DNA of 64,000 nucleotides from positions 239,634 to 303,633 of the forward strand of contig NW_026782349.1 of the NCBI RefSeq assembly GCF_031769215.1. The letters run 5' to 3'. The position numbers and the translations under genes are program-made. Every line of letters starts with the position of its first letter. Within the stretch, counting starts at the first letter, position 1. Positions 34,359 through 64,000 of this stretch are shown piece after piece. This DNA comes from Ylistrum balloti (Eukaryota). The notes under the pieces were generated by a model, which saw only the letters and a list, made by a program, of their open reading frames with translations, searched no databases and was not told the DNA's origin.

Positions 34359-34403
34359 CTATCTTACTTGGTCTGATTTCCTTAAAACATTCCGCTGGAC
34401 TTT
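34359..34403 (-). CDS. Putative last coding segment (KVQRNVLRKSDQVR, then TAG stop at 34359-34361). The stop overlaps a caa|GTAAGA donor-like site, so the true 3' end may lie further downstream.
   Basis: Acceptor ttgtgcAG. A short phase-0 ORF running to TAG. Confidence 0.3.
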   Translation of the reverse strand, partial: KVQRNVLRKSDQVR

Positions 34404-34654
34404 CTGCACAAAGAAATAAAAATCATTATAAGCACTATAACACCAGAGACAAGGAGGAGTTAACAGAAGCAGCAAATCATTACCGACACAAACGGTCTTT
34501 AGAAAATTTTACATATTTTTTTATGGTGTTACATTCAGTTAAGATGAGATCACTGTAATCAACACAGAAAGAAATCAATCACCAGTATATGATACAACAC
34601 TAATACTATTAAGTGTCTCATAATGCAGTCATGAAGAATTTGAACTTGTCTTAC

Positions 34655-34754
34655 CCTGTTGAAGACCCGTGCTCGGAGACGATTCAGTGAGTAATCCTCA
34701 TCTCGTTTCTTTACATACTTCATGGCCTGCACTTCAGGGAGTTTTTTGTACAAC
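34655..34754 (-). CDS. Exon (RLYKKLPEVQAMKYVKKRDEDYSLNRLRARVFNR)
   Basis: Acceptor acacAG; donor agg|GTAAGA. Confidence 0.45.
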
Positions 34755-35417
34755 CTGTGTGAAAATATGATGTATAATTATATGTATAATACAAGAAACT
34801 TTCTTACCACTGAAATGTATTACTCATGATTAGATGTCCTTGCCACAGCTTGGTTCAGATAAAGGTTGGTTCATAGAAAAGCAATGCTGAGAACAAAACA
34901 TTTGTAATTCTAGAAGATGCTTTTGTAAAGCACACATTGTGTCTTTAGTTGGATGGGAAAGTGTGAAGTCTTAATTTTGCTGAACACATTGTCCAAACCG
35001 CAAAAATAGAGCTAAATCCAAAGTCTCCTAAAGAAACATGGCTAATCAAAAATGTGAAAGAAAAGACAACGTTCACTGTGATGTTAGTGTATAATCAGAG
35101 TTTCAGGTCAACAAATAAAAAAGCAAACTGTATGGGCAAAGCAACAGTTTGAGGTACTCTGAAGTCCATCCAAGGTACAACTGAGCAGTCTCTCATCCAA
35201 GTGCTGACCACATTTGACATTGCTTAATTTCAGAACATGGACATGACACTCAACAGCACAACAACAAAAGCAATTGAAATGACAAAAAGTCATGAACCGC
35301 CACAGTATGGACAGATTGACAGATTTTATATTGTTTGTGGGAACATTAATAACTTACATGCTATGACTTTGCCAGTACTTATCTTTGAAGAAATAAAAGT
35401 GAAATCTTTCAACCAAC

Positions 35418-35481
35418 CTTTTAGTTAATTCCTTCATTTCTTTCTTAGACATGGATCTTCTTTTTGGCTTGTGTAGGTTTT
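35418..35481 (-). CDS. Exon (ENLHKPKRRSMSKKEMKELTK)
   Basis: Acceptor atttccAG; donor ag|GTTGGT. The phase joins the 34754 exon. Confidence 0.45.
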
Positions 35482-35789
35482 CTGGAAATAATAAAATATG
35501 GAGATAGAGGAACCAGTTGTTGACAATATTCATTACACGTATTTACCATGAAATGTGAGTCTCTGTTGTCTTTATCACAGTTCAATTATTAAATTCCTAA
35601 ATATTTCTCTCTGGCTATGTGAAGTATTAACTGTCTGTCTCTCAGCTCTAGTAATTATTTTTTTTATTCCTTGTCTCTCTCTATTTCTTTGCTTGGGTGG
35701 GTAATTGACTACATTCTTAATACTTCTCTCAGCTCTTAACTTATTTGACTTCTCTGAAATCTTTCATAATTGAACACTCAAGTCTTTCT

Positions 35790-36110
35790 ATAGAGCCTAA
35801 TAATTAGATGGACATCCAGGTCCCTTTCTCAAGCCTGATAATTAGATGGACATCCAGGTCCCTTTCTCAAGCCTGATAATTAGATGGACATCCAGGTCCC
35901 TTTCTCAAGCCTGATAATTAGATGGACATCCAGGTCCCTTTCTCAAGCCTGATAATTAAATGGACACCTAGGTCTCTCTTTTGACCCTAATAATTAAATG
36001 GAAACCCAGATTGTTATCTCAAGCCAAATAATCCAGGAGACATCTAAGTCTTTCTCTCAAGCTACGTAATTAAATGGACACTCAGATCTCTTTCTTAAAA
36101 GCCTAATGAT
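35790..36110. repeat. 37-bp tandem unit, about 8 copies (GATAATTAGATGGACATCCAGGTCCCTTTCTCAAGCCT)
   Basis: Direct reading. Confidence 0.9.
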
Positions 36111-36189
36111 AATCTGGACAAGTTTACTAACCACAACAGAGATGTGTAATATTGAGTACAAAATTGTGTACCACATTAACTCCATAATA

Positions 36190-38815
36190 GTTAGAAATGT
36201 TGAGTATTGAGGTGTGGAATTCACTACCTGCTAAAAGGGTGTGTAACATTAAGTGTAGAAGTGTGGATTATACACTGACCACTATAGGGGTGTGTAATGT
36301 GAGTATAGAGGTGTGTAATGTTGAGAATTGAGGTACGTACTGCACTAACTCCTGTAATGGTGTGTAATGTGAGTACAGAGGTGTGTAATGTTGAGTATAG
36401 AGGAGTGTACAGCACTAACCCCTATAATGGTGTGTAATGTTGAGTATAGAGGTGTGGACTTCACTAACCCCTATAATGGTGTTTAATGTTGATTATTGAG
36501 GTGTGAACTTCACTAACTGCTATAATGGTGTGTAATGTTGAGTACAGAGGTGTGGACTTCACTAAGCACTATAATGGTGTGTAATGTTGAGTATAGAGGT
36601 GTGGACTTCACTAACCCCTATAATGGTGTGTAATGTTGAGTATAGAGGTGTGGACTTCACTAACCCCTATAATGGTGTGTAATGTGAGTACAGAGGTGTT
36701 TACAGCACTAACCCCTATAATGGTGTGTAATGTTGAGTATAGAGGTGTGGACTTCACTAACCCCTATAATGGTGTGTAATGTGAGTACAGAGGTGTTTAC
36801 AGCACTAACCCCTATAATGGTGTGTAATGTTGAGTATAGAGGTGTGGACTTCACTAACCCCTATAATGGTGTTGAATGTTGATTATTGAGGTGTGAACTT
36901 CACTAACTGCTATAATGGTGTGTAATGTTGAGTACAGAGGTGTGGACTTCACTAAGCACTATAATGGTGTGTAATGTTGAGTATTGAGGTGTGGACTTCA
37001 CTAACCCCTATAATGGTGTGTAATGTGAGTACAGAGGTGTTTACAGCACTAACCCCTATAATGGTGTGTAATGTTGAGTATAGAGGTGTGGACTTCACTA
37101 ACCCCTATAATGGTGTTTAATGTTGATTATTGAGGTGTGAACTTCACTAACTGCTATAATGGTGTGTAATGTTGAGTACAGAGGTGTGGACTTCACTAAG
37201 CACTATAATGGTGTGTAATGTTGAGTATAGAGGTGTGGACTTCACTAACCCCTATAATGGTGTGTAATGTGAGTACAGAGGTGTTTACAGCACTAACCCC
37301 TATAATGGTGTGTAATGTTGAGTATAGAGGTGTGGACTTCACTAACCACTAGAGGGATATGTAATGTTGAGTATAGAAATGTGGACTTCACTAACCCCTA
37401 TAATGGTGTGTAATGTTGAGTACAGAGGTGTGGACTTCACTAACCACTAGAGGGATATGTAATGTGAGTACAGAGGTGTGGACTTCACTAAGCACTATAA
37501 TGGTGTGTAATGTTGAGTATAGAAGTGTGGATTTCACTAACCACTAGAGGGATATGTAATGTTGAGTATAGAGGTGTGGACTTCACTAACCACTAGAGGG
37601 ATATGTAATGTTGAGTACAGAGGTGTGGACTTCACTAACCACTAGAGGGATATGTAATGTGAGTACAGAGGTGTGGACTTCACTAAGCACTATAATGGTG
37701 TGTAATGTTGAGTATAGAAGTGTGGACTTCACTAACCACTAGAGGGATATGTAATGTTGAGTACAGAGGTGTGGACTTCACTAAGCACTATAATGGTGTG
37801 TAATGTTGAGTATAGAAGTGTGGACTTCACTAACCACTAGAGGGATATGTAATGTTGAGTACAGAGGTGTGGACTTCACTAAGCACTATAATGGTGTGTA
37901 ATGTTGAGTATAGAGGTGTGGACTTCACTAACCACTAGAGGGATATGTAATGTTGAGTATAGAGGTGTGGACTTCACTAAGCACTATAATGGTGTGTAAT
38001 GTTGAGTATAGAGGTGTGGACTTCACTAACCACTAGAGGGATATGTAATGTTGAGTACAGAGGTGTGGACTTCACTAAGCACTATAATGGTGTGTAATGT
38101 TGAGTACAGAGGTGTGGACTTCACTAAGCACTATAATGGTGTGTAATGTTGAGTACAGAGGTGTGGACTTCACTAACCACTAGAGGGATATGTAATGTTG
38201 AGTACAGAGGTGTGGACTTCACTAACCACTAGAGGGATATGTAATGTTGAGTATAGAGGTGTGGACTTCACTAACCCCTATAATGGTGTGTAATGTTGAG
38301 TATAGAAGTGTGGACTTCACTAAGCACTATAATGGTGTGTAATGTTGAGTATAGAAGTGTGGACTTCACTAACCACAAGAGGGATATGTAATGTTGAGTA
38401 CAGAGGTGTGGACTTCACTAACCACTAGAGGGATATGTAATGTTGAGTATAGAAGTGTGGACTTCACTAACCCCTATAATGGTGTGTAATGTTGAGTACA
38501 GAGGTGTGGACTTCACTAACCACTAGAGGGATATGTAATGTTGAGTATAGAAGTGTGGACTTCACTAACCCCTATAATGGTGTGTAATGTTGAGTACAGA
38601 GGTGTGGACTTCACTAACCACTAGAGGGATATGTAATGTTGGGTATAGAGATGTGGACTTCACTTACCACAAGAGGGATATGTAATGTTGAGTATAGAGG
38701 TGTGGACTTCACTAACCCCTATAATGGTGTGTAATGTGAGTACAGAGGTGTTTACAGCACTAACTGCTATAATGGTGTGTAATGTTGAGTATAGAGGTAT
38801 GGATTATACACTTAC
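36190..38815 (-). repeat. 49-bp minisatellite, about 53 units, made of copies of the exon end plus donor of the minus-strand exon 38816..38993
   Basis: Minus-strand unit CCATTATAGTGGTTAGTGAAGTCCACACCTCTGTACTCAACATTACACA. Compare the exon end ..CCTTATAGTG|GTAAGTGTATAATCCATACCTCTATACTCAACATTACACAC. Confidence 0.9.
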
Positions 38816-38993
38816 CACTATAAGGATGAGCCTCTGGGTTCGACTCCTTCTTGCCTCCCTGGTTTTCAAACAGTTCCTTTCTCTCCTGTTCAAGGTAATG
38901 TTGCAGTTGGCGCTCGTGTGCTGCTAACAGGACTCGCTTCTGACGTTCACCCACACGAGATATTGTGCCTTGCTTGAAAGTCTTAAAAGCCTC
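38816..38993 (-). CDS. Exon (EAFKTFKQGTISRVGERQKRVLLAAHERQLQHYLEQERKELFENQGGKKESNPEAHPYS)
   Basis: Acceptor ctttacAG; donor g|GTAAGT at the start of the 49-bp array, whose unit copies this exon end. Confidence 0.55.
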
Positions 38994-39128
38994 CTGTAAA
39001 GTTATAAAGATTTTATTGTTTGGAATGCATCCGTGTACTTGAAACTACTATCTAAAAAATGTATGTCACCATGATCTCATTGGATTTAGAATTTTTATCA
39101 AACTCAAATATGAACTTATCTCACTAAC

Positions 39129-39409
39129 CTGCAAGGACATTTTATTTAATGGCTTTGGATCATAATTTTCTTCATCAGAGCTTTTGGCATCCATGTCATC
39201 ATCACCTATTCTTTGACCTTTTGGGTCAAGGTCAAACTTTGTGTCTCGTGATTTATTGAGGATATCATTACTAACAGCAGCCTTCCAGTCTGCAGGGTGC
39301 ATAGATTTAGGTTGCCATGGTTTCTGTTTTACAGCATGTGCTTGCTGTTCCTTTAGAGGTTGTCTCCATGGTCGAGATTCAGGCAATGGAATGTACCAAG
39401 ATATGCCCC
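39129..39409 (-). CDS. Exon (RGISWYIPLPESRPWRQPLKEQQAHAVKQKPWQPKSMHPADWKAAVSNDILNKSRDTKFDLDPKGQRIGDDDMDAKSSDEENYDPKPLNKMSLQ)
   Basis: Acceptor tgtttcAG; donor cag|GTTAGT. Phase-consistent with both neighbours. Confidence 0.55.
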
Positions 39410-39825
39410 CTGAAACATTCATCACAATTATAACCAGTGAAAGCTGTCAACCACTTTATCTTATACACCAATTCTCATATTTTTCCTTTCTATATTCTGT
39501 GATATGCTTAAATTAAGCTTGTTCTAACTAGCTGTTGCTGGATATTCATTTTATCTATTTAGAGAGCTGTATAATGAAATTAGTAGTTAGCTCTAAGTCC
39601 AAATATGAAACAATATTTCAGTAGATACCAGGTCACTTTATCACGCCTAGAAAACTACTTCACAGGGATGGATGATGCAGAAACAAAAACGGCTGAAGAA
39701 GAGTATGCTTCAATGTCAGTTTATCTCGATAGATAACATAACCACCATGAAATCATAACTTTGTGAAGTATTTGGAAAAGTCATTTGTTTCTACAGGAAC
39801 CATCCCTGTGGTGTAGTTTCCTAAG

Positions 39826-40183
39826 TGTGTTTATACCAGTAAAGATTAATTAAAAAAAGCTTACTGTTTGGGCTGTCCTGTAAATGTGTTTATACCAGTA
39901 AAGATCAATTAAAAAAAGCTTACTGTTTGGGCTGTCCTGTAAATGTGTTTATACCAGTAAAGATCAATTAAAAATGCTTACTGTTTGGGCTGTCCTGTAA
40001 ATGTGTTTATACCAGTAAAGATCAATTAAAAAAAGCTTACTGTTTGGGCTGTCCTGTAAATGTGTTTATACCAGTAAAGATCAATTAAAAAAAGCTTACT
40101 GTTTGGGCTGTCCTGTAAATGTGTTTATACCAGTAAAGATCAATTAAAAAACGCTTACTGTTTGGGCTGTCCTGTAACTTGGC
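39826..40183 (-). repeat. 59-bp unit x6, made of copies of the exon end plus donor of the minus-strand giant exon 40159..42071
   Basis: Minus-strand unit TTACAGGACAGCCCAAACAGTAAGCTTTTTTTAATTGATCTTTACTGGTATAAACACATT. The first unit is the exon end itself, ..GCCAAGTTACAGGACAGCCCAAACA|GTAAGCG. Confidence 0.9.
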
Positions 40184-42071
40184 AATACAGGTGTCGTCTG
40201 GAGTTTCTGGAGTAAACATTCGAGACTTAGGAGGTGGGACAGCCTTCGACAAGTATCCATAATCAATGTCTGTCTTTGGGGACGGTGACCTTGGCTTTCT
40301 TCTGACCTCATTTACAGTTGATCTCTCTGGTGACATACTTATCTCAAATGATGTTGTCCTCTTGTTTTCATGTGACTTTGACCTTGACCTAGACCTAAGA
40401 GGTGAAGCTGACGATGAAATACTAGTATGAGCAGACCTCTGGCGAGCAGGAGAGCGAGAACTTGACCTGTTAGGTGAGGTGGAGACATGTTTGCGTCTTC
40501 TCTCTGGCGACATGAGAGGAACAGGTATGACCCCTCTGTCATTGTGAGAGGGAACATAGGGACTGGTCTGAACAGCCTCAGACACCATTGTGACCTTTCC
40601 TGATTTCTTACCACGTTGCCGCGGAGGACTAACGTGGATTGGAGATGGATACATTGTTGATACAGACTTATACTTTCGAGATGCGGGCGACCTTGATTTC
40701 CTTGGCTTTTCAAACTTGTCACCATATATACCACTTTCTTCCATCTGTGCTAAAAACCTCTCAACATTTTCTTTATTTTTCTGGTTAATTTTCGGTTCCT
40801 GATAAATATCTGCAGTCTTTCCTTTCTTTCCTTTCTGCTTTCCTTTTTTCTCACTGCTGAATTTTTCCCCTCTTTTCTTGGCTGAAAATGGCCGATGAAA
40901 AATACTGTCCTCATTTTGAGATTCAGAATCCTCATGGATACCTGTTGTTTGTACATTGTCCTTCATGGTGATCCTGGCACGTGTTGGCACCCTGCCCTGA
41001 TCCTGAAATGCCACTTGTCGACTTTTGTTTGGCTGTTGGAAGGGTACATCTGTGCTACTCTCTTTAGATGAGGTTGTATCGGCAACAGCAACATTGGAAT
41101 CTGCCTGTGAGGTTAACGTGGAATCTGTATCTAAAAGAGTGGTGGATGAATCTGTCATGGATATAGATGTTGTTGATGACACCAAGTCCAGTTCGACACC
41201 GATGGCTTTGTCTGAAAGTTTCCCTTTTTTTTTAGCAGTCAATAACATTTCCAATTTCTTGAGCTTCTCCATTCTACGCATCTCCTTCTTTCTCTCCTTG
41301 TCGATCTTATCCCGCTGGTGTAGTACCTTGTCATGAAGCTTGGCCATCAGTGGATCAATGACATGTCGTCGTCTGTTACGCTTGGCTTTTAACATCAGCT
41401 CAGAGTCATTCAGTTTACTTGGTGTTGTCGTATCAAAGCTTGTGTCCTCTGGTATTGAGTAAAGAGTGTCAGCACTGTCTCCAAGCTTCTGGACACGAGC
41501 TGGCTTTGTTTCTTTGTTTCTATTTTTATTTTCCTTATTTTTCTTTTCTTTTTCTGCTCGTTTCTTCTTTTCCTGGTGTGCCAGGATCTCAGCATAGCTC
41601 CCATTGCTCTCATCATCTCCACTTAACCTCTTCCTGTACTCTGCCTCCCATCTCAGTCGTTCAGCTTCTTTTCTTTGCTTCGATGATTTCTCCACTTCCT
41701 GTTTTTGAGATGACTGACGATCATCTCCCTCCTCATGTAATGCTTTAAGTTCATTCATCAAGCGGTTTTCTTTGGCGCGTTCGTATGTCACATCATCCAT
41801 GTACTTCTGAACAACGTGCTTTGTTGGGTTTTTAATTAAGCTGGTAAGAGTATCCATGCGTGGTGTGTTCAAGCTGCTCTCACTGGCATTGCTTGGATCA
41901 ACATCTTTGAACCGTTGCCACATGTCATTGATGTCGGGGTGGACAGACTCTCGATACTCCTTCTCCAAACTCTCGCGAAGGATAACAACACGCTTGCTTG
42001 GGGGCCTCTTGTCAAACTCTTCATCATATTCACTCTCGTTATCCACCAGGGGAACAAATTTGTGTTGTGAC
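40159..42071 (-). CDS. Giant exon (about 637 codons; RSQHKFVPLVDNESEYDEEFDKRPPSKRVVILRESLEKEY...TPDDTCIAKLQDSPN)
   Basis: 1913 nt. Acceptor catccatAG. It ends at aca|GTAAGC, the first unit of the 59-bp array. Lys/Glu/Arg/Ser-rich with KKKRAEKEKKNKENKNRNKE and RSRSKS stretches. Confidence 0.6.
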
Positions 42072-42212
42072 CTATGGATGAAAAGAACAATGGAATTACA
42101 TGTGATTCTACCGAAGTTTCTATAATACACAGATCACATGTGTTACATCTATCTAATCACAATCTATTATAAACTGTTACATTATAAGAGGCTCTGATCC
42201 TAAAAGTCTGAC

Positions 42213-42313
42213 CTTGCTTTCATCTCCAGGTCCCTGATCAATTTGTCACGTTTCTCCTTCAGTAGTTTTTCTTTCTCCTCATTTATAGCATCCTCAAAGT
42301 CAGAATCGGGAAG
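42213..42313 (-). CDS. Exon (LPDSDFEDAINEEKEKLLKEKRDKLIRDLEMKA)
   Basis: Acceptor ccttcAG; donor ag|GTCAGA. Predicted coiled-coil-like charged segment. Confidence 0.5.
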
Positions 42314-43232: not shown

Positions 43233-44687
43233 CTGTTCTAGTTCCTTGAATTGTCCATCTTCTCCAGGATCCAAGTATGCAATTCCTCGTCTGTTATCTT
43301 GGTCTGAGTTCCTACCTAATGTCTCTTGGAAATCAAGTCCTGGCTCCAAGGGTTGAGCTATCAGCCCTTCCCCTGGTTCCAGAGGTCTTTCAACCCTGGA
43401 ACCAAGTGGATGGTCAGCACTTGGATTGTAACCTCTGTCCAGAGGCTGTCCAGTTTTGTCACAGTATGTGGCAGTAACTTCAACCTTGCTGTTGCTCTGT
43501 GGATAGTCTCTCTTTGAATTTGCCCAAGATGGACTCATGAGTCTTTGACGTTCAGCTTGGGTGACATATTCGACTGGTGCATTATCTTCCTTTATCCTAA
43601 AACTGCCCTTGCGTACATCAACACCGCCATCACTGATGGTACCTCCTCCTGTCTCCCTTGTGTTCTGGTAGATTTCCCGGTCTCCCTTAGGATGATAGGT
43701 TTCTCGTCCAGGCTGCCCTTGGTAAATGTCTCTAACATCAAGATCTCTATAAGCCTCCCCAGGTTCAAGTGACCTTGACCTCAACCTTGGATTGTAATCA
43801 ATTTTCTTGTCTAAATGATCAGATTTCCTCAAATCTTGAAAGTCTCTTCCTTTCTCCAAAGGTCGTTTTCTGATTCTCTCTTCCATGTACTTGGCCATAT
43901 GATCATGAGCCTGCCCCTGATTGGGGCTTCCTCTGCTACCAGCCATTGCTGGGGAATCCATTGTTGTATGATGAGAGAAAATTGGGGATGGTTGACATGA
44001 CAAATCCATTAATCTAGTGCTATGAACAGGTGAGGAATTCCTGTGACTCTCAGGACTGAGAGCGATGAGATCTGTCTCCGATTTTGACCTAGATCTTGTG
44101 ACACCAACAGGATCTTGCTTGTAATAGTTTCGGCCTTCAGAATGCCTGTCCAGTGGGTAGACAGACAGGTCACTTTCCCGTCCTGGACGAGGGGTGAAGA
44201 TATCACCAGGGTCGGACCTTGTTGTTACAGAGAGGGGATCATTCTCTGTACCAGTGCTTATCCTCTCCTTAGGTCGTACATCTGCAGAAGTGAGATCTGA
44301 ATGATCTGATCCAATGCTCCGATACTTATAACTGTTTGTACCTCCATCACTAATCATTCTGTTGCCGCCCAGGACATCATCACCAGGCAACAAACTGTAT
44401 CCGTTCCTCTGCTGACTTGCTGATGTTGTCATCCTAGTAGGGTTATAACTTCCTACATATTCTCTGTCTTTTAAAGGTAAATCACGTTGTAAATCTGCAG
44501 AAGTTGGTTTTGAGCTACTGTATGGAGCATCCTGGTCACCATCCTGTCTTACATTGCGACCCGACAGAAGTTCAAGGCCACTGTCTGGACGGTGCTCTGT
44601 TGATGTAATGTTGTCTCCCCTTGAATTGGCTGAGTGTATAGATCGCTTGTCCAAGCCACTGTCTGTCCCTGACTTATCCCGGTCATC
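43233..44687 (-). CDS. Giant exon (485 codons; DDRDKSGTDSGLDKRSIHSANSRGDN...GQFKELEQ)
   Basis: 1455 nt, starting and ending in phase 0. Acceptor tattgacAG; donor cag|GTGATT. Ser/Arg/Asp/Pro/Tyr-rich low-complexity sequence. Confidence 0.6.
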
Positions 44688-44985: not shown

Positions 44986-45125
44986 TGCCATTGATTTCTC
45001 CTCTATAGTGGAAAGTCCCTCTGATGACAGCCGGTGACCACAGTAAATGCCTCCAGTTTTTGGTCCATCAGGTCTTGATCCGAGGCAGTGGGAAGGAAAA
45101 GACGGCCCAATCGCATCATCAGAAC
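44986..45125 (-). CDS. Exon (GSDDAIGPSFPSHCLGSRPDGPKTGGIYCGHRLSSEGLSTIEEKSMA)
   Basis: Acceptor gctgtAG; donor gca|GTAAGT. Confidence 0.5.
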
Positions 45126-46258: not shown

Positions 46259-46702
46259 CTCGATAATCCTTCCACGAGACACTGTGTTGTCCACTGACAT
46301 AGTCACCATGGAAACCATTGTGACGTTCTTTGTAATCACCATGACGACCTAGACCATTCTGATGATTTTTACGATAGTCTCTCATATAATCAGAAGTATA
46401 GCGTGTGTTGCTATAATCTCGGCTCTTTACATCACCAAAGTAGCTCTCTGGGTGAACGTCACTTACAATATCATGCTTGCTGTACTTGTCTTTTTCATCA
46501 TAATCAAATTTCTGTTTACCACTATCATACTTTTGATAATCAGAGTAAGTCCTCGAGTCCCACTCAGACTTTGGTAAATAACCATTATATTTGCTATGTG
46601 AATCTGTGGAATAGCTCATGTAAGTATTGACAGGGGTGGTCTGGTCGTCATGGAGATATTTGAAAGTTTCATCACTATGATCCCAGTTTCTGTGTATGTC
46701 AT
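46259..46702 (-). CDS. Tyr/Asp-rich exon (DDIHRNWDHSDETFKYLHDD...YSDYQKYDSGKQKFDYDEKDKYSKHD...GDYKERHNGFHGDYVSGQHSVSWKDYR)
   Basis: 444 nt. Acceptor tactacAG; donor g|GTATCC. Phases join the 50839 and 45125 exons exactly. Confidence 0.55.
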
Positions 46703-47059
46703 CTGTAGTATAATAATATAAAAAAAAACTGCTGTAACAGCCATTACTGATACAGGTACATTCACTCATTGATATGAATCTTCAGGATACTTAAACTGAA
46801 GAATGGTTATTTCCATGAATAAACACTGAAAGAATATTCAAAGGACTCAATACATATGCAATATAAAGGAGTAATGACATGCCCTCATAATGACTTTCAC
46901 TAGAGATCTGTTGCTCCTCAGGCAGGCACCTACACTAGGCTGAAGGGAAATTCCCACCAGCAGAGATTTGTAAAGTGACCTTTGTAACTCAACTTTGACA
47001 CATCTACCCCCTCCACAAAGTCATGATCACAAAGTCAACCACCAAGATAATGAAATATA

Positions 47060-48650
47060 ACTTTACTGAACAGTAATGTCTTGGGGTGGACATATTACAG
47101 AACAATGAAATAACATTGGTTTATAACTTTACTGAACAATAACATATTGGGGCGGGCTTATTACAAAACAATGAAATAACATTGGTTTATAACTTTACTG
47201 AACAATAACATATTGGGGCGGGCTTATTACAGAACAATGAAATAACATTGGTTTATAACTTTACTGAACAATAACATATTGGGGCGGGCTTATTACAGAA
47301 CAATGAAATAACATTGGTTTATAACTTTACTGAACAATAACATATTGGGGCGGGCTTATTACAGAACAATGAAATAACATTGGTTTATAACTTTACTGAA
47401 CAATAACATATTGGGGCGGGCTTATTACAGAACAATGAAATAACATTGGTTTATAACTTTACTGAACAATAACATATTGGGGCGGGCTTATTACAGAACA
47501 ATGAAATAACATTGGTTTATAACTTTACTGAACAATAACATATTGGGGCGGGCTTATTACAGAACAATGAAATAACATTGGTTTATAACTTTACTGAACA
47601 ATAACATATTGGGGCGGGCTTAATACAAAACAATGAAATAACATTGGTTTATAACTTTACTGAACAATAACATATTGGGGCGGGCTTATTACATAACAAT
47701 GAAATAACATTGGTTTATAACTTTACTGAACAATAACATATTGGGGCGGGCTTATTACAGAACAATGAAATAACATTGGTTTATAACTTTACTGAACAAT
47801 AACATATTGGGGGTGGCTTATTACAAAACAATGAAATAACATTGGTTTATAACTTTACTGAACAATAACATATTGGGGCGGGCTTATTACTTATTTATAA
47901 CTTTAGAACAATAACAATGAAATAACATTGGTTTATAACTTTACTGAACAATACAAATAACATTGGTTTATAACTTTACTGAACAATAACATATTGGGGC
48001 GGGCTTAATACAAAACAATGAAATAACATTGGTTTATAACTTTACTGAACAATAACATATTGGGGCGGGCTTAATACAAAACAATGAAATAACATTGGTT
48101 TATAACTTTACTGAACAATAACATATTGGGGCGGGCTTATTACAGAACAATGAAATAACATTGGTTTATAACTTTACTGAACAATAACATATTGGGGGGG
48201 GGGCTTATTACAAAACAATGAAATAACATTGGTTTATAACTTTACTGAACAATAACATATTGGGGCGGGCTTATTACAGAACAATGAAATAACATTGGTT
48301 TATAACTTTACTGAACAATAACTTTACTGAACAATAACATATGGGGGGGGGGGCTTATTACAGAACAATGAAATAACATTGGTTTATAACTTTACTGAAC
48401 AATAACATATTGGGGCGGGCTTATTACAGAACAATGAAATAACATTGGTTTATAACTTTACTGAACAATAACATATTTGGGCGGGCTTATTACAGAACAA
48501 TGAAATAACGTTAGTTTATAACTTTACTGAACAGCAGTATATGTGGGTGGGCTTATTACAGAACAATGAAATAACAATGGTTTATAACTTGACTGAACAA
48601 TAACATATTGGGGCGGGCTTATTACAGAATAATGAAATAGCATAGATTTC
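47060..48650. repeat. 66-bp minisatellite, about 24 units (GGGGCGGGCTTATTACAGAACAATGAAATAACATTGGTTTATAACTTTACTGAACAATAACATATT)
   Basis: Period 66. The anchors are at 47149, 47215 and 47281. It lies in the minus-gene intron between exons 50839 and 46702. Confidence 0.95.
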
Positions 48651-49521
48651 TAAAACTGAAATATATCATATCAAAATTCAAGGTCAGCGGGTAGGTTTAT
48701 TATAGGACTATGACAAAGCATTTACTTGACAGCAACATATGTGACAGGGCTTAATACTACGCATGGGCTTATTGCCAGAGAACTGCAATAATAAGAGAAC
48801 ACAGAGCAGAACCAGATATAAACACACATTTCTGATCACACTCATACAATCAATGAATATAACACGATGTAATTACACATCTCACAAACAAATATCTTAC
48901 TTGAAATGAATGATAAAACGTTTGGTTGGAATTAAAACAAGGAAATTTAACCAACTCAGAAGATTCATACTAACCATCACTCATGATATAATGATTCCCT
49001 GATACACAGAAATACAGATACCTGCACTACTGGTTTAAAGGTTGATTATCTCAGAATTTTAAACTTGAAGAGATCATGACAGAAAATTTAGATTCTCGAA
49101 AATATGGTACTCAAAAATGAAATATGATATACGTACAAAGTATCATGTTTAATGGACACTATAGAAATTTCTGTTTACAATACTCTCTAAAATGACAGAA
49201 AATACCTAGAAAAATGTATACATTGTGCAGACTTTGAATTAGAATCTCTGAGACCTTATAGTCACCTATCACTATGATTCACCTCATTAACACAGGACAC
49301 TGGTATAAGGGAATAAGAAAGAACTTCGCTGGGAAATATCCAGAATTTCAGAAGAAATCAGATAAAAAACAAAACTCAGAGAGACATTTGATCTGGGTTG
49401 TATAATCAATATAAATCTTATAAGGAAGTTTTTCACATGTAATGGAAGAAAAGGAAAAGTTACGCCAGGAAGGAAACAGGAAGATATTATACAAGTGATA
49501 CAGAACTTATCTAGCAACATA

Positions 49522-49526
49522 TCTAC

Positions 49527-49548
<22 letters not shown>
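49522..49548. repeat. (TA)n microsatellite
   Basis: Direct reading. Confidence 0.9.
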
Positions 49549-49562
<14 letters not shown>

Positions 49563-50838: not shown

Positions 50839-50933
50839 CTGTGTGTGTACTCTCCACCGTGGCAATACTGTCCATTAGAGACCCAGAGTCGTCATGGTCT
50901 TCAGTGTAATATAGATCACGACTCCCATACGGT
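50839..50933 (-). CDS. Exon (RPYGSRDLYYTEDHDDSGSLMDSIATVESTHT)
   Basis: Acceptor tctgacAG; donor g|GTAAGT. Phase-consistent with both neighbours. Confidence 0.5.
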
Positions 50934-52184
50934 CTGTCAGACACATCAACATACAATACTTACTACTTAATTAAGAGATTTCATTATGTGAAACAATTTT
51001 CAGGAACAGAAGTGTCCTGATTAAGAAGATTAATGAAAACAAATAAAAATACTGGATGAGTTCTACTAAAATATCAAGTTATATATCAATGTTATCTAAA
51101 AAATGTTTATGCATGTATTATATCTCAAAATTTTACTGCTGTCAACTACTTCCATCAAAAAATTTTTTCCATATACATACATTAGGTGGTAAATCATATC
51201 CCAATCCATCATATCAAACATGAGGTCAAGGTCACGAGAGGTCAACCTGTCTTTCTCAGACTGCACCCAACGATGTAGACTACACATCATGTCACATTAA
51301 ATATTCTGTTACAACTCTAGTTTCTGATAAAAGCCCTCCACAAAAATTTCCTTTTTATAGAGAAAATCTCACATTCATTGATGCTCCAAAACAAATATCT
51401 TCTTTATGCTCCCAAACTACATCACCGTGTGAAGGTCACAAACAGTTAACCTTGAGATCTTACAGAGATAGTTCCTGATATTGTTGCCATCATAGACAAG
51501 TAACATGACCATGACCAATTTTTTCTGCAGCATTCTCATCCCCTTGTGGTGGAGAAATCACACGAGCATCTTAAATCTACCGATATTTAACAATGACAAT
51601 ACTAGCATTGCTTCAAGGTATATCATCAAATTATGTTGATCCTCCTTACATATGACAGGTGAAATTGAGTATACCATGGTAAAGGGAGTACAGCAACACC
51701 CTATCTCCATCGTATTGTGGATATGGTGAGGTTTCATGCAGTCTGTCAGGGTAACATCCCACATCTTCAATACCCTATTGTGAATGCTTTCATGCAGTCT
51801 GTTATTCCAATAGTCATCAACACTTGCTTAATTAAATACCAGCTTCATTTCCAAGAGTCATCAACACTTGCTTAATTAAATACCATCTCTGTCATTTAAT
51901 GCTGGCTTCAAAGGACAATTTCCTAATCATGTGATGGGGTATATTGGTTACACAAGGTTTTAAGGTGTTCAACAGTTGAAGAAGAGTCCATTTCTCTAGT
52001 CATGTGATGGGGTATATTGGTTACACAAGGTTTTAAGGTGTTGAACAGTTGAAGAAGGATCAATTTGTTTGAGTCTGGGGTAAGATTATTGTTACACAGG
52101 TTTATATGGCATTTTACCTGTTTGACTGGAAAAGGATCTATTTATCTGGTTTATTTGTAATACATTGTGGTAAAGGTGTTTTAC

Positions 52185-52278
52185 CTGTATGGCCGGAGCC
52201 TTGAACCCTCCCGGCGACGTGAGCTGTTGTCAGAGTCATCAGGTGAAATGACACCTCCACTACTGGATGGACTACCCT
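52185..52278 (-). CDS. Exon (EGSPSSSGGVISPDDSDNSSRRREGSRLRPY)
   Basis: Acceptor ccatAG; donor ag|GTAAAA. The phase joins the 50839..50933 exon. Confidence 0.45.
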
Positions 52279-56507: not shown

Positions 56508-56602
56508 CTTGTTGTGGGCTGTTGCCTCCATACGTCTCCTGACGATCACTCCCTGATCGTGACAGGCGGGCACTCTTACTGCTGGACGGGCGACCATCAT
56601 CC
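56508..56602 (-). CDS. Exon (GDDGRPSSSKSARLSRSGSDRQETYGGNSPQQ)
   Basis: Acceptor tttttcAG lies directly against the 41-bp array. Donor g|GTCAGT. Phase-consistent. Confidence 0.45.
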
Positions 56603-56649
56603 CTGAAAAATAGACATACAAAAAGTGAGTGAAAAACAGCATGTAAAAA

Positions 56650-57245
56650 TTAATGGAAGAAGGAAGTTGGTGAAGAACAGCATGGCAGAGTTAATGGAAG
56701 AAGGAAGTTGGTGAAGAACAGCATGGCAGAGTTAATGGAAGAAGGAAGTCGGTGAAGAACAGCATGGCAGAGTTAATGGAAGAAGGAAGTTGGTGAAGAA
56801 CAGCATGGCAGAGTTAATGGAAGAAGGAAGTTGGTGAAGAACAGCATGGCAGAGTTAATGGAAGAAGGAAGTTGGTGAAGAACAGCATGGCAGAGTTAAT
56901 GGAAGAAGGAAGTCGGTGAAGAACAGCATGGCAGAGTTAATGGAAGAAGGAAGTCGGTGAAAAACAGCATGGCAGAGTTAATGGGAGAAGGAAGTTGGTG
57001 AAGAACAGCATGGCAGAGTTAATGGAAGAAGGAAGTTGGTGAAGAACAGCATGGCAGAGTTAATGGAAGAAGGAAGTAGGTGAAAAACAGCATGGCAGAG
57101 TTAATGGAAGAAGGAAGTCGGTGAAGAACAGCATGGCAGAGTTAATGGAAGAAGGAAGTTGGTGAAGAACAGCATGGCAGAGTTAATGGAAGAAGGAAGT
57201 TGGTGAAGAACAGTATGCCAGAGTTACTGGAAGAAGGAAGTTTGT
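56650..57245. repeat. 41-bp minisatellite, about 14 units (TAATGGAAGAAGGAAGTTGGTGAAGAACAGCATGGCAGAGT), directly against the acceptor of the minus-strand exon 56508..56602
   Basis: Period 41. The array ends in the polypyrimidine tract and AG of the exon, read on the minus strand. Confidence 0.9.
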
Positions 57246-57391
57246 TAAGAACTGCATGGTTAAGTTATCAGAAGAACAGTTCATTGTTAAAAAATATAAC
57301 TTTTATTTAACAAATTCTGATGGAAATTTCTAAGCTTTAAAGCAAACTTTGAGATTTTCTTAAAATTTTTATTGATGTAAACAGCTCTTAC

Positions 57392-57493
57392 CCAGCAGGT
57401 GATGAAGAGAGTCTACGGTCAGTCAGCGATGTTGTGTTGTCATCACGACTCAACGGTGCCGCTTCCTCTGACCTACTTCTGATATGTCGTTCC
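57392..57493 (-). CDS. Exon (ERHIRSRSEEAAPLSRDDNTTSLTDRRLSSSPAG)
   Basis: Acceptor tatttAG; donor gg|GTAAGA. In phase with its neighbours. Confidence 0.45.
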
Positions 57494-57589
57494 CTAAATA
57501 CAGACCATCAGTAAAAGAATAAGAGATTTTGCATAACGAAACTTTTAAAGGCCAAAGAATACAAAAGTTTTTCAATTTCTAAAAAGATG

Positions 57590-58320
57590 TTTGTAAATGA
57601 AAAGTGTCTTTTATATAAATAATGCAAAAACAATGCAACTGATGTAAAAATTTTGCCATCAAAGTACAAATAATGCCACTGAGGTATAAAAACAGCCACT
57701 AAAGAATATATAATGCCACTGTGGTATATATAATGCCACTGAGCTACAAATAATGCAACTAAGGTGACAATAATGTCTCTAAGGAACAAATAATGCCACT
57801 ATGGTATACATATTGCCACTAAGGACCTTAGGTAAAAATAATGCACTAAGGTACATACAATGCCACTGAGGTACAAATAACATCACTTAGGCACCTAGGT
57901 ATCAATAATGCCACTAAGGAATAAATAAGCCACTATTGAACAGAGGTAAAAATAAAGCCACTTTGGAACAAATAATGCCACTGAGGTACAAATAATGTTA
58001 CTAAGGTACCTAGGTATTGATAATGCCACTAAGGAACAAATAATACCAATATGGAACAAAGGTAAAAATAATTCCACTATCGAACAAATAATGCCACTAT
58101 GGAACAAATAATGCCATTGAGGCACAAATAATGCCACTGAAGTATCAATAAAGCAAGTATTGAACAAATTATGCCACTCAGAAAACAAAACTTTTCACTA
58201 AGGTACAAATAATACCACTGAGGTATAAATAATGCTACAGAGGAACAAATAATGCCACTGTGTTTTATATATAATGCCACTGAGGTATTAATGCTGATAC
58301 TTGAGATATGAATTTGCACA
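57590..58320. repeat. About 22-bp degenerate minisatellite (AATAATGCCACTAAGGTACAAAT variants)
   Basis: Direct reading. The short minus-strand ORFs across it are artefacts. Confidence 0.85.
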
Positions 58321-59452
58321 GGTTTACAGTATATACACAACACACCAGAGGTATAAAATTAAGATTTTTACAATGAAAGGATGACTGAATGTACACTGTA
58401 CAGCACTTTTATATGGATATATATCCATTACAGTAATGATAAGGAAAATACACATAATACAATGTATAAAACCAAATACATACATATATACTAGACTTTT
58501 AAAGTGCATTAGGCATCAACTATATGTATGGGGGGGAGGGGTGGTAAAATGTAACAAAATGTAAAATTCAAATCACTGCATTAGAATATAGAAAAAAAAT
58601 GTATGTCTAGTACAAAACTTAAAACCAACTGAAGGTTTTATAGGATTGCTGATGTTGAGCTGTGTAGGAGTCATTAATGTGTTAATATTCTCTATGTATA
58701 AGACAGGAAGCAATTATGTACACATAAACAGATTTGTCCAATTAGCATTTTGAATATTGACTACATATAAACATATACATATTCATCTATTAAGTGTTTG
58801 GAATATTGAGTATCTAAATAATTAGTAATGCTGTGCATATTGCAAATTAATCAAATCAATTTATATAATGGTTATTATATACCAGGTAAATTATATCATA
58901 TACACAGAACACAAGATCTATACAATAATCATAATGAATAGAAAACAAAGTTTCACGACTAATGAAATCCTTTTTACTCTTAATTCCCAATAAATTGTTT
59001 AATGAATAATAAAGTTTATCTGATGAATTAGGGATACATAGTAAGAGGTGAATTTTGGTTAGGTAAAGTGCATTACAATGGGCAGTGAGGTAAAACATGC
59101 AGGTTTGGGAGTCTATAGGCTATATTCTAATACTGTACAGTATATCAAACCTGAAGGGACATTGTTGACATAGACATGACTCCTTGCCATCAACATCCCT
59201 CTAGTGGCCAAAGAATACTCCTGTATTTTACTCTAAGAAATATCCATACAACATCTTATTTTCTGAATGGATATCCCTTTTAAAATTTCAAAATTTTGAT
59301 ATTTCAAAAAAGTTGAAACAGTTTTCAAACATTTCTTCAGAAGCTTTGCTCTTTAGATAATAAGTGTTGCAATAACTGAGGTAGGACTCTTTAGGTGCCA
59401 AATACTTTCAACAATAATCTTTTTGTGTGTCTAATTGATGGCCACACTGTAC

Positions 59453-59528
59453 CTGTCGGGACTAATCCTGAAGTCGGGTGAGAGGTCACGAGGGTCGCTC
59501 AATCGTCGCTGTTGGTCTCTCTGCTGGA
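59453..59528 (-). CDS. Candidate exon (..QQRDQQRRLSDPRDLSPDFRISPD)
   Basis: Flanked by cccAG and GTACAG. Its phase links to the 57392..57493 exon. Boundaries are uncertain. Confidence 0.3.
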
Positions 59529-62102
59529 CTGGGCAGTTGTCCAGATCATTAAGAAAAAAACGTTCACTGCAAAACAGGATTGGTGGTGAAAGGTAGGGGG
59601 TGCGGATACACTCTGTGGCACACAGGGCAGTGAGGGGCAGTCCCTCTGGATACGATAAGGCTTATTTCAATGAGATTTATACTGGTTAGAAAATGGGGTT
59701 TTGTTAAAAGACACTTAAATAGGTAAGTGTACAAGTTAAATGGTAACATGTATCTTACATGGTTCTCGGATACAGATATTTTGATCGTTAAACCAAAATT
59801 TTGCATTCTGTATTTAAGTAATGAAGAAGCTTTTCAGAAATTTTGAGTAAGGTCCCATACTATCAATTTTGGGTATTTGTTCTGTTTTTTGATAATGTGT
59901 AACAGCAGATTATAAAAGCATACACTGGTGTAATGCTCCATAACCCAATCATATATCATATACAGGAAACATTGATAAAATACTAATTCTACAAAACAAA
60001 CCCAAGTTATTAATAGCCACAGCTGTGACTGATAATGAATGTTGCAGAACATTTTCATTTATCAAGATTGAAATTTCAGCAAATATGATTACAAAAATTA
60101 TGTAGGAATATGCCAACCGTGACATGAAGTTTGATATACAAGCAAATGACAGAAACATGCATACTTATACAAGCCAAACTTGTGTACAGAGTTTTTAAGC
60201 TTGTTATATGAAAAATTTAACCCCCAACCAATAAAAAGAACAATGTCATGTACTACCTAATATTGATGAACTGATCACTTTTAGGGAGGTATTTACATTG
60301 AAACAAGAAACATTTAAATAGAGTGAGTTCAATGTTCACATTTATCAACAATTTACATATTTATTTATCTTTAGGGATCTCTGAAAGCTTTTTACTTATT
60401 TTTTAAAATTCTTTTATCAAAGCATTTTTTTTCAGAATCATTTTATAATTAATCTATTTCCTAAAAGTAATGCCAGCCTCCTGTCCACCCTGTTGCCATA
60501 AACACATGTACTATTTGACATCCAAATAATGCCATGTACTCCAGGAACACACTCAACACAACTGTGATTCAAAAACTGTGATTTATCTTTGATATGTTCA
60601 ATGTCTGGACCTAAAAAATCCAAATAATTACACTCAATTTAAATTGTAATATTACCAATTAGATATATCTAAGGTTTTTTCTCTGTTTGCATGTTTATAC
60701 AATACATACCTAGGTTTTTTTTTTATTGCTGTCATAAAGATATCATTTTTTAAATATACATTTCTGAATGCAAACCTTAAAATTTTCAGCACTTATTCCA
60801 ACGTAACTTTTTTCCTGTGATGATTTCACATGATATTCACACATGAAGCTAGAGTAGCTTCCCCTGAGGTCAATTATAGCTCTACATAACAAGAGAGTAT
60901 TAGTTCCAGACATTGCCATACTTGGGAAAAACACATGATAAAACATTCATAAAACAGGGTGTGATGTGATAAAGTCAGTGAATTATATCAGAGAAATCAG
61001 TAATTGCATGAATACCAATACTAGGATGTTCATCATGAGATCAATGATGTGCTTCAACGCACAATAAAATTAACCTAAATCCTTCTTTAAAAACTAACCA
61101 TGATACCTGAAATCACAGACAGCCATGTTCTTACTCCTTACAATATATGTCTAGTGCCATTTTGATGGCGGATGAAAACATGGGAGACAACTCCCTCTAA
61201 TGGAATGGATGCAATCTAGTTAATTGTAAATATTACTAGGAAGATCATTAACACATAACAATCAACTAACTTGTTAAGTAAATTCCATCTACTACAAGAA
61301 TTCTATGTAATATTGGTAAAGTGCAGCTCAAGAAGTCTGCAGTTATAATCATTGATCTACATACAGAGCAGGATTCTTTTATCCAAACTGACAATTTTCT
61401 ACTTGAAATATTAAGTGATATGTGAAGTGATGTATGTACTGAGCGCTGTGAACAGATGAATGTGCAGTGAACTGCTGTTGTGAGTTCAATGTTGACAACG
61501 AATATGATGTGATGGAAATGCCATAGGCTCTAGTTTATCATTTACAAATAAATTAATTACTCACATTTTATTGTGAAGTGAAATTATGTGAATTCCATTT
61601 AAGAAAAATGAATTAAATATCAAATCCTACAAATTATATTGGTGATACATTACAACAACGAGTGTGAACATTGATGATTAAAAAGTGTGTCATAACAAAA
61701 AAGTTCAAAAGGCTGCTAAAATGAGAAAATGAAATGTAAATAAAAAGACATAAATGACTTCACAGTGTAAAATAACAGTGCACATGAGAATGTTTAAGAA
61801 TTCTTTTTATGTTTCCATTATTTTAGTTAACTATACTAATGAAAGATATATCACTACTGATTGTGACTGTCTACTCTCAGATCGAAAACATTCATACACA
61901 AATTACAAAAATACAGAATAATATAAACTACTGTAAATCTATTTGTGTTTAAAGAGAAAAGCTATATAAGTTGAGTCATCTAAGTTGTTTTCCTAATTAC
62001 CAAAATGTGCAGACAGCAGGAGATGGGAACAATATGGTATTCATCCAATTTCCATCTCTATATATACTAGCCGGTAGGGAATTCACTCATTAAAAACTTA
62101 CT

Positions 62103-64000
62103 TGGCAAGCTGTGGTGTAACTGTGTCTTTAAGATCCAGCTCCCTAGGAGGCCGTGCTGGAGACGGCTTCAGTTCATGGTAAACTTCCTCATCCTTGCTC
62201 TCAGTATCTCCTCGACTCTCCCCCTGATCTGGCCAAGCTTCTCTGGGGACACCTGGATCTGCCTGCCTTTGATTGTCTCTATACACAGGGTAGCAGTCAA
62301 TGACCTGACGATATGGCGTACGCAGATTTATACTGTGGTCAAATGTGCGATCTGTGGTTTTCTGTATCTGAGATGACAGGTATTTTTCTGCATTCCCAAG
62401 TGCATTGAAAGGTGCATGCTTGCCACCTTTCAAGAAAGACAACTCTGATGCAGTTGTTTTGTCTGGATGCATACTTCCATTTAAAGAACTCATCTGTGAC
62501 CACTCCAATTGTTTCTTGATGTCTCTGTCTCGAACTATAAAACTGCCATTTGGGGATTCATAACTGTCATAGCTAGAGTCCATCTTAGGTCGGTTGGCAA
62601 TCCTCTCCATCATCACACGTTCCTGCTGCATAGCCTCCTCCAGGATACCAAATACTTGTTTCTGTGGTGGTTCCTTCGTGAGAATGGTGAAAACTCGACT
62701 TGCCAAACCAGAGTTGTCCAATGCATCTTTTTCTTCATTTTTAGCCTGGTATTTTCTTATGATCTCCTCCACATCTGGAGCAAGAGTTCTGGGTTGACCA
62801 TTGTCAAGCTCCGATTCAGAATCAAGCTGATCACCTACAATATCTACCTTCCTACGCCCCTGCTCAGGGGATGGCCTCTCATCATCTGTATTGGGTCTGG
62901 ATTCCCCTAAAGCTGTCAGACCTAAAGTATCAGTTTCAGTCTCAGTGTCATTTTTCATAGTCCCAAGGAACACACCTGCACCACTTACATTGATCCCAAA
63001 GTCTGCTGCATGATCCCAGAGAAGTTTACGGTTTCTAGCACTCTCAGGATTTGAGGAGAAACTTTCACCACTTCTGTCCATGTCAGCACCTCTGGATCTG
63101 GGAGCATGGCTATTGTAGGCCTCTTCCCCGACCTGCTGGTTAAGGCTGTTCTGTATGTCCTGCAAGTCCCTCTGTAACAGTGAATAGTCTATGTGTGCAG
63201 GATTTTGGACACCACTATATGCTTTATCTGTATGTCGTGCTTGTTCAAGAGGTGGATACTGCATTTTTTCCACGTAGGCTGTTTTTGCTAAAACATTCTG
63301 CACTCGTTGACCCAGAGAGTCTGCTGAATCTGTACTGCGATCTGAGTTGAGACGGGCACGTGTTTCCTCAAGAAGTCTCTCTGTCTCCCTCTCCTGTCGG
63401 TAGTAGCGCTGCAAAGACTCAAGTTCAGCAGCACTCTCATTACTTAGGTCCCTTTCCTCAGTGACAGATTTCAGGTCAAGTTTCAGACTGCCTGTCCCTG
63501 TGGAATCCCCCTTCACTAGCAGTTTGGCCACTTCTTCACCCAGGGACGAGGTCATACTCTGTTCAGACTTTGATAAATTTTCTGCATTTGATCCCAATGA
63601 CCCAAGACTTCGAGACTGGTTCTCCAGGTTCTCTTTCACTTCATCGATCTTTCTCTCTGCCTGAACTACATCGTACGGAGGTGGGGGTGGTCTGGATTCT
63701 AATGAACATGGCAATGGTCTATCCTTGGCTCCCTGCAATCTCGGCTCCAGTGATGGTCCATCTTTTTGATGATGATCCCCTTCACCTAGGCCTAGTGACT
63801 CTCTGTTGTACAACTGTTTGTGAAGTGTAGCTCCTAATGAACTGGCATCATCAAGAAGTTTGGCGACACGCTGTGACATGTCAGTACAGGACAATGGTTC
63901 AGTTCCGTGAGTTGTGGTGGCAGTATCTGCAGTTATCTGTTGATGAACATTTGCCGAACTTCCACTTTGAACTATGTTTTCTGTTTCCCGTGGTTCTGGA
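62103..64000 (-). CDS. Giant coding exon, open beyond the window, of a disordered Ser/Glu/Arg/Asp-rich protein. It ends either at TAA (62098-62100) or at the overlapping GTAAGT donor (exon end 62102).
   Basis: An uninterrupted frame of more than 1.9 kb with no stop back to position 64000. Low-complexity polar composition. The final codons GCC AAG TAA overlap a perfect caa|GTAAGT donor. Confidence 0.55.

Follow-up and report, generated by a model that had tools for sequence, protein, structure and literature searches.

Which protein does the large minus-strand gene in this stretch of scallop DNA encode? The window, by which we mean the whole stretch of 64,000 nucleotides (nt) that was analysed (Ylistrum balloti, RefSeq assembly GCF_031769215.1, contig NW_026782349.1, positions 239,634 to 303,633), holds one large minus-strand gene that occupies positions 34359-64000 according to spliced mapping of the Ylistrum RefSeq protein. 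A first-pass annotation, made from the letters alone, had described the product as a long disordered polypeptide whose composition resembles nuclear-speckle or serine/arginine (SR)-related proteins. We propose that the gene is the Y. balloti orthologue of ALMS1, a protein of the centrosome and basal body that is mutated in human Alström syndrome, and put the probability of this reading at roughly 87%. The protein would be mostly disordered, with short conserved islands whose order matches that of vertebrate ALMS1: a repeated peptide 'DSLxxRVxxLL', a mid-block, a 'WYIP..KPWRxPLxEQ' block and the C-terminal ALMS motif.

The gene and its C-terminal motif

The joined exon translations have as their top homologue the RefSeq entry "uncharacterized protein LOC132556190" of Y. 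balloti (2561 amino acids, aa; label P0001), which is already annotated but unnamed; orthologues from ten other bivalves follow. LOC132556190 maps to the window without a mismatch as 14 coding exons that encode aa 376-2561 plus the stop codon (6561 nt), with AG/GT boundaries (GT-AG introns) and consistent phases at all 14. The first-pass annotation had postulated at least 13 phase-consistent exons encoding more than 2000 aa in a single minus-strand gene, and this was borne out. Position 34359 is the final base of the TAG stop codon. At the other end exon 1, 100% identical to LOC132556190 over 633 aa by tblastn, has a reading frame that remains open as far as 63999; the gene thus extends beyond the window edge, and its 5' end, encoding aa 1-375, lies past base 64000. 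Giant exons are present (1898+, 1455 and 1913 nt), and the minus strand contains open stretches of 633+, 506 and 681 codons in AT-rich DNA (32-46% GC). Stop codons arise on this strand with a probability of 0.068 per codon, which puts the chance of 633 open codons in a row at ~6e-20. The exons in the window total 16, two of them cassettes, and the encoded protein is ~2560-2750 aa long.

A conserved domain, which the first-pass annotation could not name, sits at the extreme C-terminus. Pfam family PF15309, the ALMS motif, matches aa 2428-2556 of the 2561 residues of LOC132556190 (E 2.7e-26; 92.9 bits against a cutoff of 27) and spans profile positions 2-132 of 133. It was found in 11/11 bivalve orthologues, none of which had any other Pfam family at E<=0.01. 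Even a rough join of the window exons matched PF15309 (E 5.8e-22). The giant exons taken singly gave nothing in Pfam besides a sub-threshold Spectrin match, and the ALMS motif appears only after joining the small 3' exons. The C-terminal peptide that had been quoted as short, basic and coiled-coil-like corresponds exactly to exons 12-13, that is, to part of the motif, and its description was apt: the motif is basic, with an isoelectric point (pI) of 10.4, and predicted to be helical. The HMMER or BLASTP comparison of exon translations that had been proposed as a check yielded LOC132556190, the bivalve orthologues and PF15309. AlphaFold2 predicts long helices at aa 2432-2481, 2505-2517 and 2520-2560 (block pLDDT, the predicted local confidence, 77-92), which flank the conserved non-helical linker NPEAHPYSENLHKPKRR (NPxAHPYSENLHxPKRR). 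When the PDB sequences were searched with the C-terminal profile, no solved structure matched at E<=1.

Conserved blocks shared with vertebrate ALMS1

Three animal families bear the ALMS motif, namely ALMS1, C10orf90/FATS and CEP295/Ana1 (PMC2965680, PMC6327082, PMC5007451). When 1.84 billion representative proteins were searched exhaustively in HMMER with a 222-aa bivalve profile of the C-terminus, 456 matched. Those covering the whole profile were 'uncharacterized' proteins of gastropods, bivalves, an annelid (Owenia) and a nemertean (Tubulanus), together with a stingray cluster that carries the gene symbol alms1 and aligns to profile positions 2-216. The next ranks went to sea urchin and hemichordate sequences and to a tunicate 'Alstrom syndrome protein 1 homolog', ahead of numerous ALMS1 proteins of vertebrates (opossum, gerbil, bat, wombat, echidna, caecilian, crocodile, bird, frog and teleost). 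Of the top 150 matches, 30 were named: every large vertebrate or tunicate protein among these 30 is ALMS1 or alms1, C10orf90/FATS accounts for two, and CEP295 does not occur. Searches of raw assemblies with the C-terminal and mid-block profiles returned almost only exon-sized fragments, which were uninformative on family and specificity. The bivalve orthologues are collinear, with hundreds of invariant columns along the whole length of an 11-species alignment, and conserved blocks reach annelids, nemerteans, echinoderms, hemichordates and vertebrate ALMS1. The earlier suggestion of a fast-evolving or lineage-specific protein does not agree with this pattern.

The motif is accompanied by further blocks. 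A full-length bivalve hidden Markov model (HMM) matched mammalian ALMS1 at a second site, well upstream of the ALMS motif. Iterated profile searches lengthened the alignments to vertebrate ALMS1 greatly; their E-values are circular and were therefore replaced by those of profiles built from 23 invertebrate sequences only and run against named vertebrate proteins (Z = 1e6). With these profiles the mid-block (scallop aa ~1096-1185, exons 4-6) matched ALMS1 of opossum at an independent E-value (i-E) of 1.7e-19, of crocodile at 2e-18, and of gerbil, bat and frog at 2e-10 to 2e-13, while the ALMS motif itself matched vertebrate ALMS1 at 1e-27 to 1e-30. The mid-block consensus reads 'LRPYRPxGS...ESTHTGSDDAxxPxFPxxxLGSRxD...GIY', the scallop form being LRPYRPYGSRDLYYTE...ATVESTHTGSDDAIGPSFPSHCLGSRPDGPKTGGIY and the opossum form LLPYKPPGSTTMYYVP...TTVESTHSGSNDAIAPDFPPEALGTRDEN...KEGIYSKK; aligned residue by residue, this likeness is specific rather than compositional. 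The block is common to 78 of the fetched proteins. Moreover, in opossum, stingray and teleost ALMS1 the invertebrate-only C-terminal match reaches over the pre-motif block 'WYIP..KPWRxPLxEQQA'. C10orf90/FATS aligns at the C-terminus only and has no mid-block.

Another element is the peptide D-S-L-[GA]-x-R-V-x-x-[ILV]-L, of which scallop exon 1 contains three strict copies and one looser one. Shuffled sequences are expected to hold 0.008 strict copies each, and 0/3000 shuffles reached three. Annelid, urchin and hemichordate orthologues have two or three copies. An invertebrate-only HMM of this peptide picked out a single 'DSLAARVxxLL' site each in tunicate, echidna, caecilian, shark and frog ALMS1, with scores exceeding the highest of 300 shuffles; the site falls just under the shuffle threshold in crocodile, a second shark and teleost, and lies upstream of the mid-block in every case. 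Scallop and vertebrate ALMS1 consequently have in common the collinear series 'DSLAxRVxxLL', 'PY[RK]PxGS...ESTH[TS]GS[DN]DA...GIY' and 'W[YF]xP..KPWRxPLxEQ'. Knorz et al. (2010; PMC2965680) reported similarity beyond the motif only within chordates. The additional collinear blocks go modestly further than this, and we found no earlier description of these modules in the literature, as far as could be found.

In overall build the scallop protein also resembles vertebrate ALMS1, whose non-mammalian forms (2100-2900 aa) are likewise large, mostly disordered, partly encoded by giant exons, and end in the motif. Frog ALMS1 (2621 aa) has PF15309 only, the same Pfam architecture as the scallop. Differences exist as well: the scallop has several DSLxxRVxxLL copies whereas vertebrate ALMS1 has one, large conserved regions in exons 1 and 9 are lophotrochozoan-specific with no detectable vertebrate counterpart, and a Tyr/Asp-rich cassette exon is specific to Pectinidae.

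Exons, cassettes and intronic repeats

The exon 5/6 boundary of the scallop gene falls inside the invariant core of the mid-block, ESTHT/G-SDDA (here and below, a slash marks a boundary). Pairs of ALMS1 isoforms from echidna, caecilian and crocodile are distinguished by a segment of 42-45 aa, '...LLPYKPSGS..MYYVP...ES[ST]HS', which ends at the equivalent point, ES[ST]HS/G, directly before GS[ND]DA. This suggests an ancient shared intron position and a module that splicing would switch in and out in both lineages; for vertebrates the boundary is deduced from protein isoforms only. Scallops could insert the Tyr/Asp cassette at ESTHTG/SDDA, while vertebrates could skip the upstream 42-45 aa exon; alternative splicing at this junction would probably modulate the mid-block module, an idea that is speculative.

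Two frame-preserving exons with AG/GT boundaries lie outside the RefSeq model (Table 1), and the comparison of orthologous sequences indicates that both are genuine and conserved. Cassette A occurs in proteins of Pecten maximus (85% identity), Tegillarca and Ostrea, and its ends coincide with the Pecten sequence. Cassette B, the Tyr/Asp-rich block (YSDYQKYD...), is used in isoform X2 of Mizuhopecten yessoensis (aa 1135-1304; 58% identity over 171 aa) and, when included, sits exactly between ESTHTG and SDDA; the bivalve orthologue comparison revealed no counterpart in oysters or mussels. The first-pass annotation was right to treat this block as coding, even though the RefSeq model skips it. 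Another open Lys-rich stretch, at 35578-35763, was considered as an exon and rejected, as no orthologue matched it.

Other observations concern the same junction. Skipping exon 4 (94 nt) or exon 5 (95 nt) alone shifts the frame; together they measure 189 nt, and their joint skipping (50839-52278) would leave the reading frame intact and delete the 'LRPYRP...ESTHT' half of the mid-block. Such a predicted event would have its parallel in the ALMS1 isoforms of echidna, caecilian and crocodile that skip an exon of 42-45 aa. The Mytilus galloprovincialis orthologue (P0008), at aa ~1240-1260, has a 14-aa insertion, AQRRVTWNPSTYYL, exactly at the ES.HT/GSDDA junction, the cassette B site of scallops. 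The insertion could be either an alternative donor, sequence retained in the model, or another sign of a splicing hotspot.

Table 1. Exons and sequence elements of the gene, listed in the direction of transcription (positions refer to the window)
Feature	Position	Strand	Residues (aa)	Remarks
Exon 1 (in-window part)	62102..64000	-	376-1007	giant; runs off window edge; donor TGCCAA/gtaagt
Looser repeat copy CTDMSQRVAKLLDDA	63844..63888	-	413-427	equivalent oyster 'LSQRVAKLL' copies fit the pattern
Repeat copy SSLGEEVAKLL	63505..63555	-	524-540	
Repeat copy DSLGQRVQNVL	63277..63327	-	600-616	
Repeat copy SGLASRVFTILTKEPPQ	62668..62718	-	803-819	nearest to the single vertebrate/tunicate ALMS1 site 'DSLAARVxxLLxxxxP'
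Cassette exon A	59453..59566	-		114 nt, 38 codons: ERFFLNDLDNCPVQQRDQQRRLSDPRDLSPDFRISPDR; outside Ylistrum RefSeq model
Exon 2	57392..57493	-	1008-1041	spliced mapping
Exon 3	56508..56602	-	1042-1073	spliced mapping
Exon 4	52185..52278	-	1074-1104	conserved ALMS1 mid-block begins (...SRRREGSRLRPYR)
Exon 5	50839..50933	-	1105-1136	first half of mid-block core (PYGSRDLYYTE...ATVESTHT/G); ends within the invariant ESTHTG/SDDA core
Cassette exon B (Tyr/Asp-rich)	46259..46702	-		444 nt, 148 codons; skipped in Ylistrum RefSeq model
Exon 6	44986..45125	-	1137-1183	second half of mid-block (SDDAIGPSFPSHCLGSRPDGPKTGGIY...LSTIEEKS)
Exon 7	43233..44687	-	1184-1668	giant, low-complexity
Exon 8	42213..42313	-	1669-1701	spliced mapping
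Exon 9	40159..42071	-	1702-2339	giant; conserved lophotrochozoan blocks
Lys-rich helical patch, exon 9	41192-41404	-	1925-1995	pI 10.45
Sole RS-rich patch, exon 9	40220-40519	-	2220-2319	
Exon 10	39129..39409	-	2340-2433	pre-motif block GISWYIPLPESRPWRQPLKEQQAHAVKQKPWQPKS (39303-39407) and first ALMS motif residues
Exon 11	38816..38993	-	2434-2492	long first helix of ALMS motif and NPEAHPYS linker
Exon 12	35418..35481	-	2493-2513	ALMS motif segment ENLHKPKRRSMSKKEMKELTKR
Exon 13	34655..34754	-	2514-2547	ALMS motif core YKKLPEVQAMKYVKKRDEDYSLNRLRARVF
Exon 14	34359..34403	-	2548-2561	TAG stop; ALMS motif end

Two introns of the gene contain tandem arrays seeded on a 5' splice site. At 39822-40177 a 59-bp unit, made up of 19 nt from the end of exon 9 and 40 nt from the start of intron 9, occurs six times with 97% identity. 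The start of intron 9 consequently holds five extra near-perfect donor junctions, ACAGCCCAAACA/GTAAGC, at 40111, 40052, 39993, 39935 and 39876, each preceded by an acceptor-like tttacag; as the unit is not a multiple of 3, use of a downstream donor would shift the frame. The other array, a 49-bp x 50 minisatellite at 36380-38823, starts in the last 8 nt of exon 11 (donor 38816) and occupies the greater part of intron 11. Degenerate copies of the donor junction TATAGTG/GTAAGTG (<=2 mismatches in 14) number 45 in it, and most read G/GTTAGTG. Further intronic minisatellites lie at 47056-48662 (66-bp x ~19 and longer-period variants), 56629-57259 (41-bp x 15), 57666-58287 (degenerate 20/40/60-bp units) and 35794-36085 (38-bp x 5.7), and several of them yield spurious repetitive open reading frames on both strands.

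Elsewhere in the window, the tail-to-tail neighbour on the plus strand (~12069-23860) is CDC23/APC8: one exon fragment matches PF04049 (ANAPC8) at E 9.9e-8, above the cutoff, and a second matches TPR repeats at E 2.5e-13. Between 16 and 24 kb there is a sustained strong positive GC skew (0.28-0.40) with negative AT skew. Coding-like repetitive open reading frames at 12200-12600 and 26513-27187 are probably further tandem repeats in or near the CDC23 introns.

Competing identities and the putative role of the protein

The reading as a nuclear-speckle or splicing protein of the SRRM, BCLAF1 or THRAP3 type arose from composition, and the composition was described correctly. Ser makes up 12.3% of the protein and Ser, Arg, Lys, Glu and Asp together 43.8%, whereas order-promoting residues account for only 21.6%, as befits a mostly low-complexity or disordered chain. 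The peptides quoted in the first-pass annotation all occur in the gene, RSRSRSKS and SRSPARQRS both in exon 9, and one oyster orthologue (Saccostrea, P0009) bears the automated name 'serine/arginine repetitive matrix protein 2-like'. Nonetheless, RS and SR dipeptides show no enrichment: 60 are present, and 1000 shuffles gave 51.9±6.3. Alternating runs, none longer than RSRSRS, are confined to aa 2220-2319, and the densest 100-aa window holds 12 of the dipeptides. Pfam has models for PWI, cwf21, THRAP3_BCLAF1 and RRM, and none of these splicing-related domains occurs in the 11 orthologues at E<=0.01, while every conserved block points to ALMS1. We therefore reject this identity, on the dipeptide statistics and the absent family domains, and consider it the most improbable of those weighed here, with next to no chance of being correct. 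Automated pipelines made the same compositional mistake: other ALMS1 orthologues are named 'microtubule-associated protein futsch-like' (Littorina, P0034), 'serine-rich adhesin for platelets-like' (Haliotis, P0036) and, in the shark Heptranchias, 'mucin-12' (P0115).

The two other families with an ALMS motif were weighed as well. CEP295 (KIAA1731/Ana1) is a centriolar protein of ~2600 aa that ends in the motif, and the scallop protein, with 2561 aa and the motif at its end, has a similar outline. However, the defining features of CEP295 are a DDC8-like domain at the N-terminus and a 43-aa PICA motif (PMC5007451), and its ALMS motif is described as more divergent (PMC6327082). In full-length LOC132556190 Pfam shows only the ALMS motif at E<=0.01. 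The absence of CEP295 from the 30 named matches, where ALMS1 and C10orf90 abound, and the two or three further collinear blocks common specifically to scallop and ALMS1, one of them with a shared exon boundary inside it, make orthology to CEP295 very unlikely. Alternatively, the gene might encode a lophotrochozoan-specific protein that carries the ALMS motif as a shuffled C-terminal module and is not orthologous over its full length, or a counterpart of C10orf90/FATS. The restriction of previously reported similarity to chordates and the lack of significant vertebrate matches for the bulk of the sequence (exons 1, 7 and 9) would fit module shuffling, and C10orf90 motifs score about as well as those of ALMS1 (i-E ~1e-27 to 1e-29 with the invertebrate profile). 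Against shuffling, the mid-block, the pre-motif block and DSLAxRVxxLL follow the same order in scallop and vertebrate ALMS1 with the invertebrate-only profiles, and urchin, hemichordate and tunicate intermediates bridge the two. C10orf90, for its part, is a protein of ~570-800 aa with PF17730 (Centro_C10orf90) upstream of the motif (E 9.2e-172 in the Elephantulus control) and without the mid-block, whereas PF17730 is absent from 11/11 bivalve proteins. We judge this pair of explanations unlikely too, if marginally less so than CEP295.

Several points weigh against the identification as ALMS1. Names were looked up for only 30 of the top 150 matches. The core pattern of the ALMS motif, Y-x4-EV-x5-[EQ]-x10-[RK]-x5-[FY] (Knorz et al. 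2010, PMC2965680), fits the scallop core (exon 13) at all fixed positions and spacings but one, where V stands for [EQ]; the strict pattern is present in 5/11 orthologues (oyster, mussel), and as a PHI-BLAST pattern it is a search heuristic and no family definition. The AlphaFold2 model of the motif lacks a compact fold (pTM, the predicted global fold score, 0.22) and was built on an alignment of only 7 sequences. From CEP295 the scallop protein would be set apart by published descriptions and match names. C10orf90 is probably a vertebrate paralogue, and instead of a strict 1:1 relation the scallop gene may have both ALMS1 and C10orf90 as co-orthologues. The top-ranked mollusc literature contains no mention of ALMS1. 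Finally, the 47-aa units of PF18727 (ALMS_repeat), of which gerbil ALMS1 has 22 besides its ALMS motif and frog ALMS1 none, are absent from 11/11 bivalve proteins. The repeat domain has been reported as mammal-specific (PMC6327082); its absence in the scallop is thus expected, and it offers no family criterion outside mammals.

As a scallop ALMS1, the protein would most likely be a disordered centriolar or basal-body scaffold whose conserved islands serve as docking sites. Such a scaffold would act in dividing cells, ciliated epithelia and sperm, and the ALMS motif would be its partner-binding module. The best experimental model for its function is the pair Alms1a/Alms1b of Drosophila, invertebrate ALMS1 homologues that are defined by an ALMS motif at the C-terminus and likened to the scallop protein here by description. 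In Alms1a this motif directly binds Sak/Plk4 and the kinesin-13 Klp10A (PMC7535930). Centriole duplication in Drosophila requires the Alms1 proteins (PMC7535930, PMC12000580), and the Plk4-Ana2 loop requires Alms1a/b (PMC12000580). Additionally, a human CEP295 fragment with the ALMS motif binds microtubules directly (PMC4958302), and ALMS1 localises to centrioles at their proximal ends (PMC2965680). Via contacts of this kind the scallop protein would support centriole duplication or cohesion and the function of the cilium or flagellum.

Whether the mid-block takes part in this role is a further question. A fragment of ALMS1, 3176-3549, is sufficient for partial centrosome targeting (Knorz et al., PMC2965680). 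In gerbil and bat ALMS1 the mid-block is offset by ~840-865 aa from the C-terminus, from which it would fall near residues 3300-3330 in human ALMS1, inside that fragment. It is conceivable, though we hold the idea with considerable doubt, that ALMS1 orthology between protostomes and vertebrates reaches well beyond the motif via collinear modules, and that the mid-block is an ancient centriole-docking or partner-binding element switched by splicing.

For annotation, the identification would mean that an 'uncharacterized' Ylistrum gene is the mollusc ALMS1 and is to be filed among the centriole and cilium genes; some of its orthologues are already recorded with the ALMS motif in databases. How ALMS1 functions is poorly understood, and outside chordates the ALMS motif has been thought the only part of the protein that can be aligned. 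The additional islands, together with the splice junction in the core of the mid-block, would offer short, specific sites to mutate in human, fly or mollusc systems.

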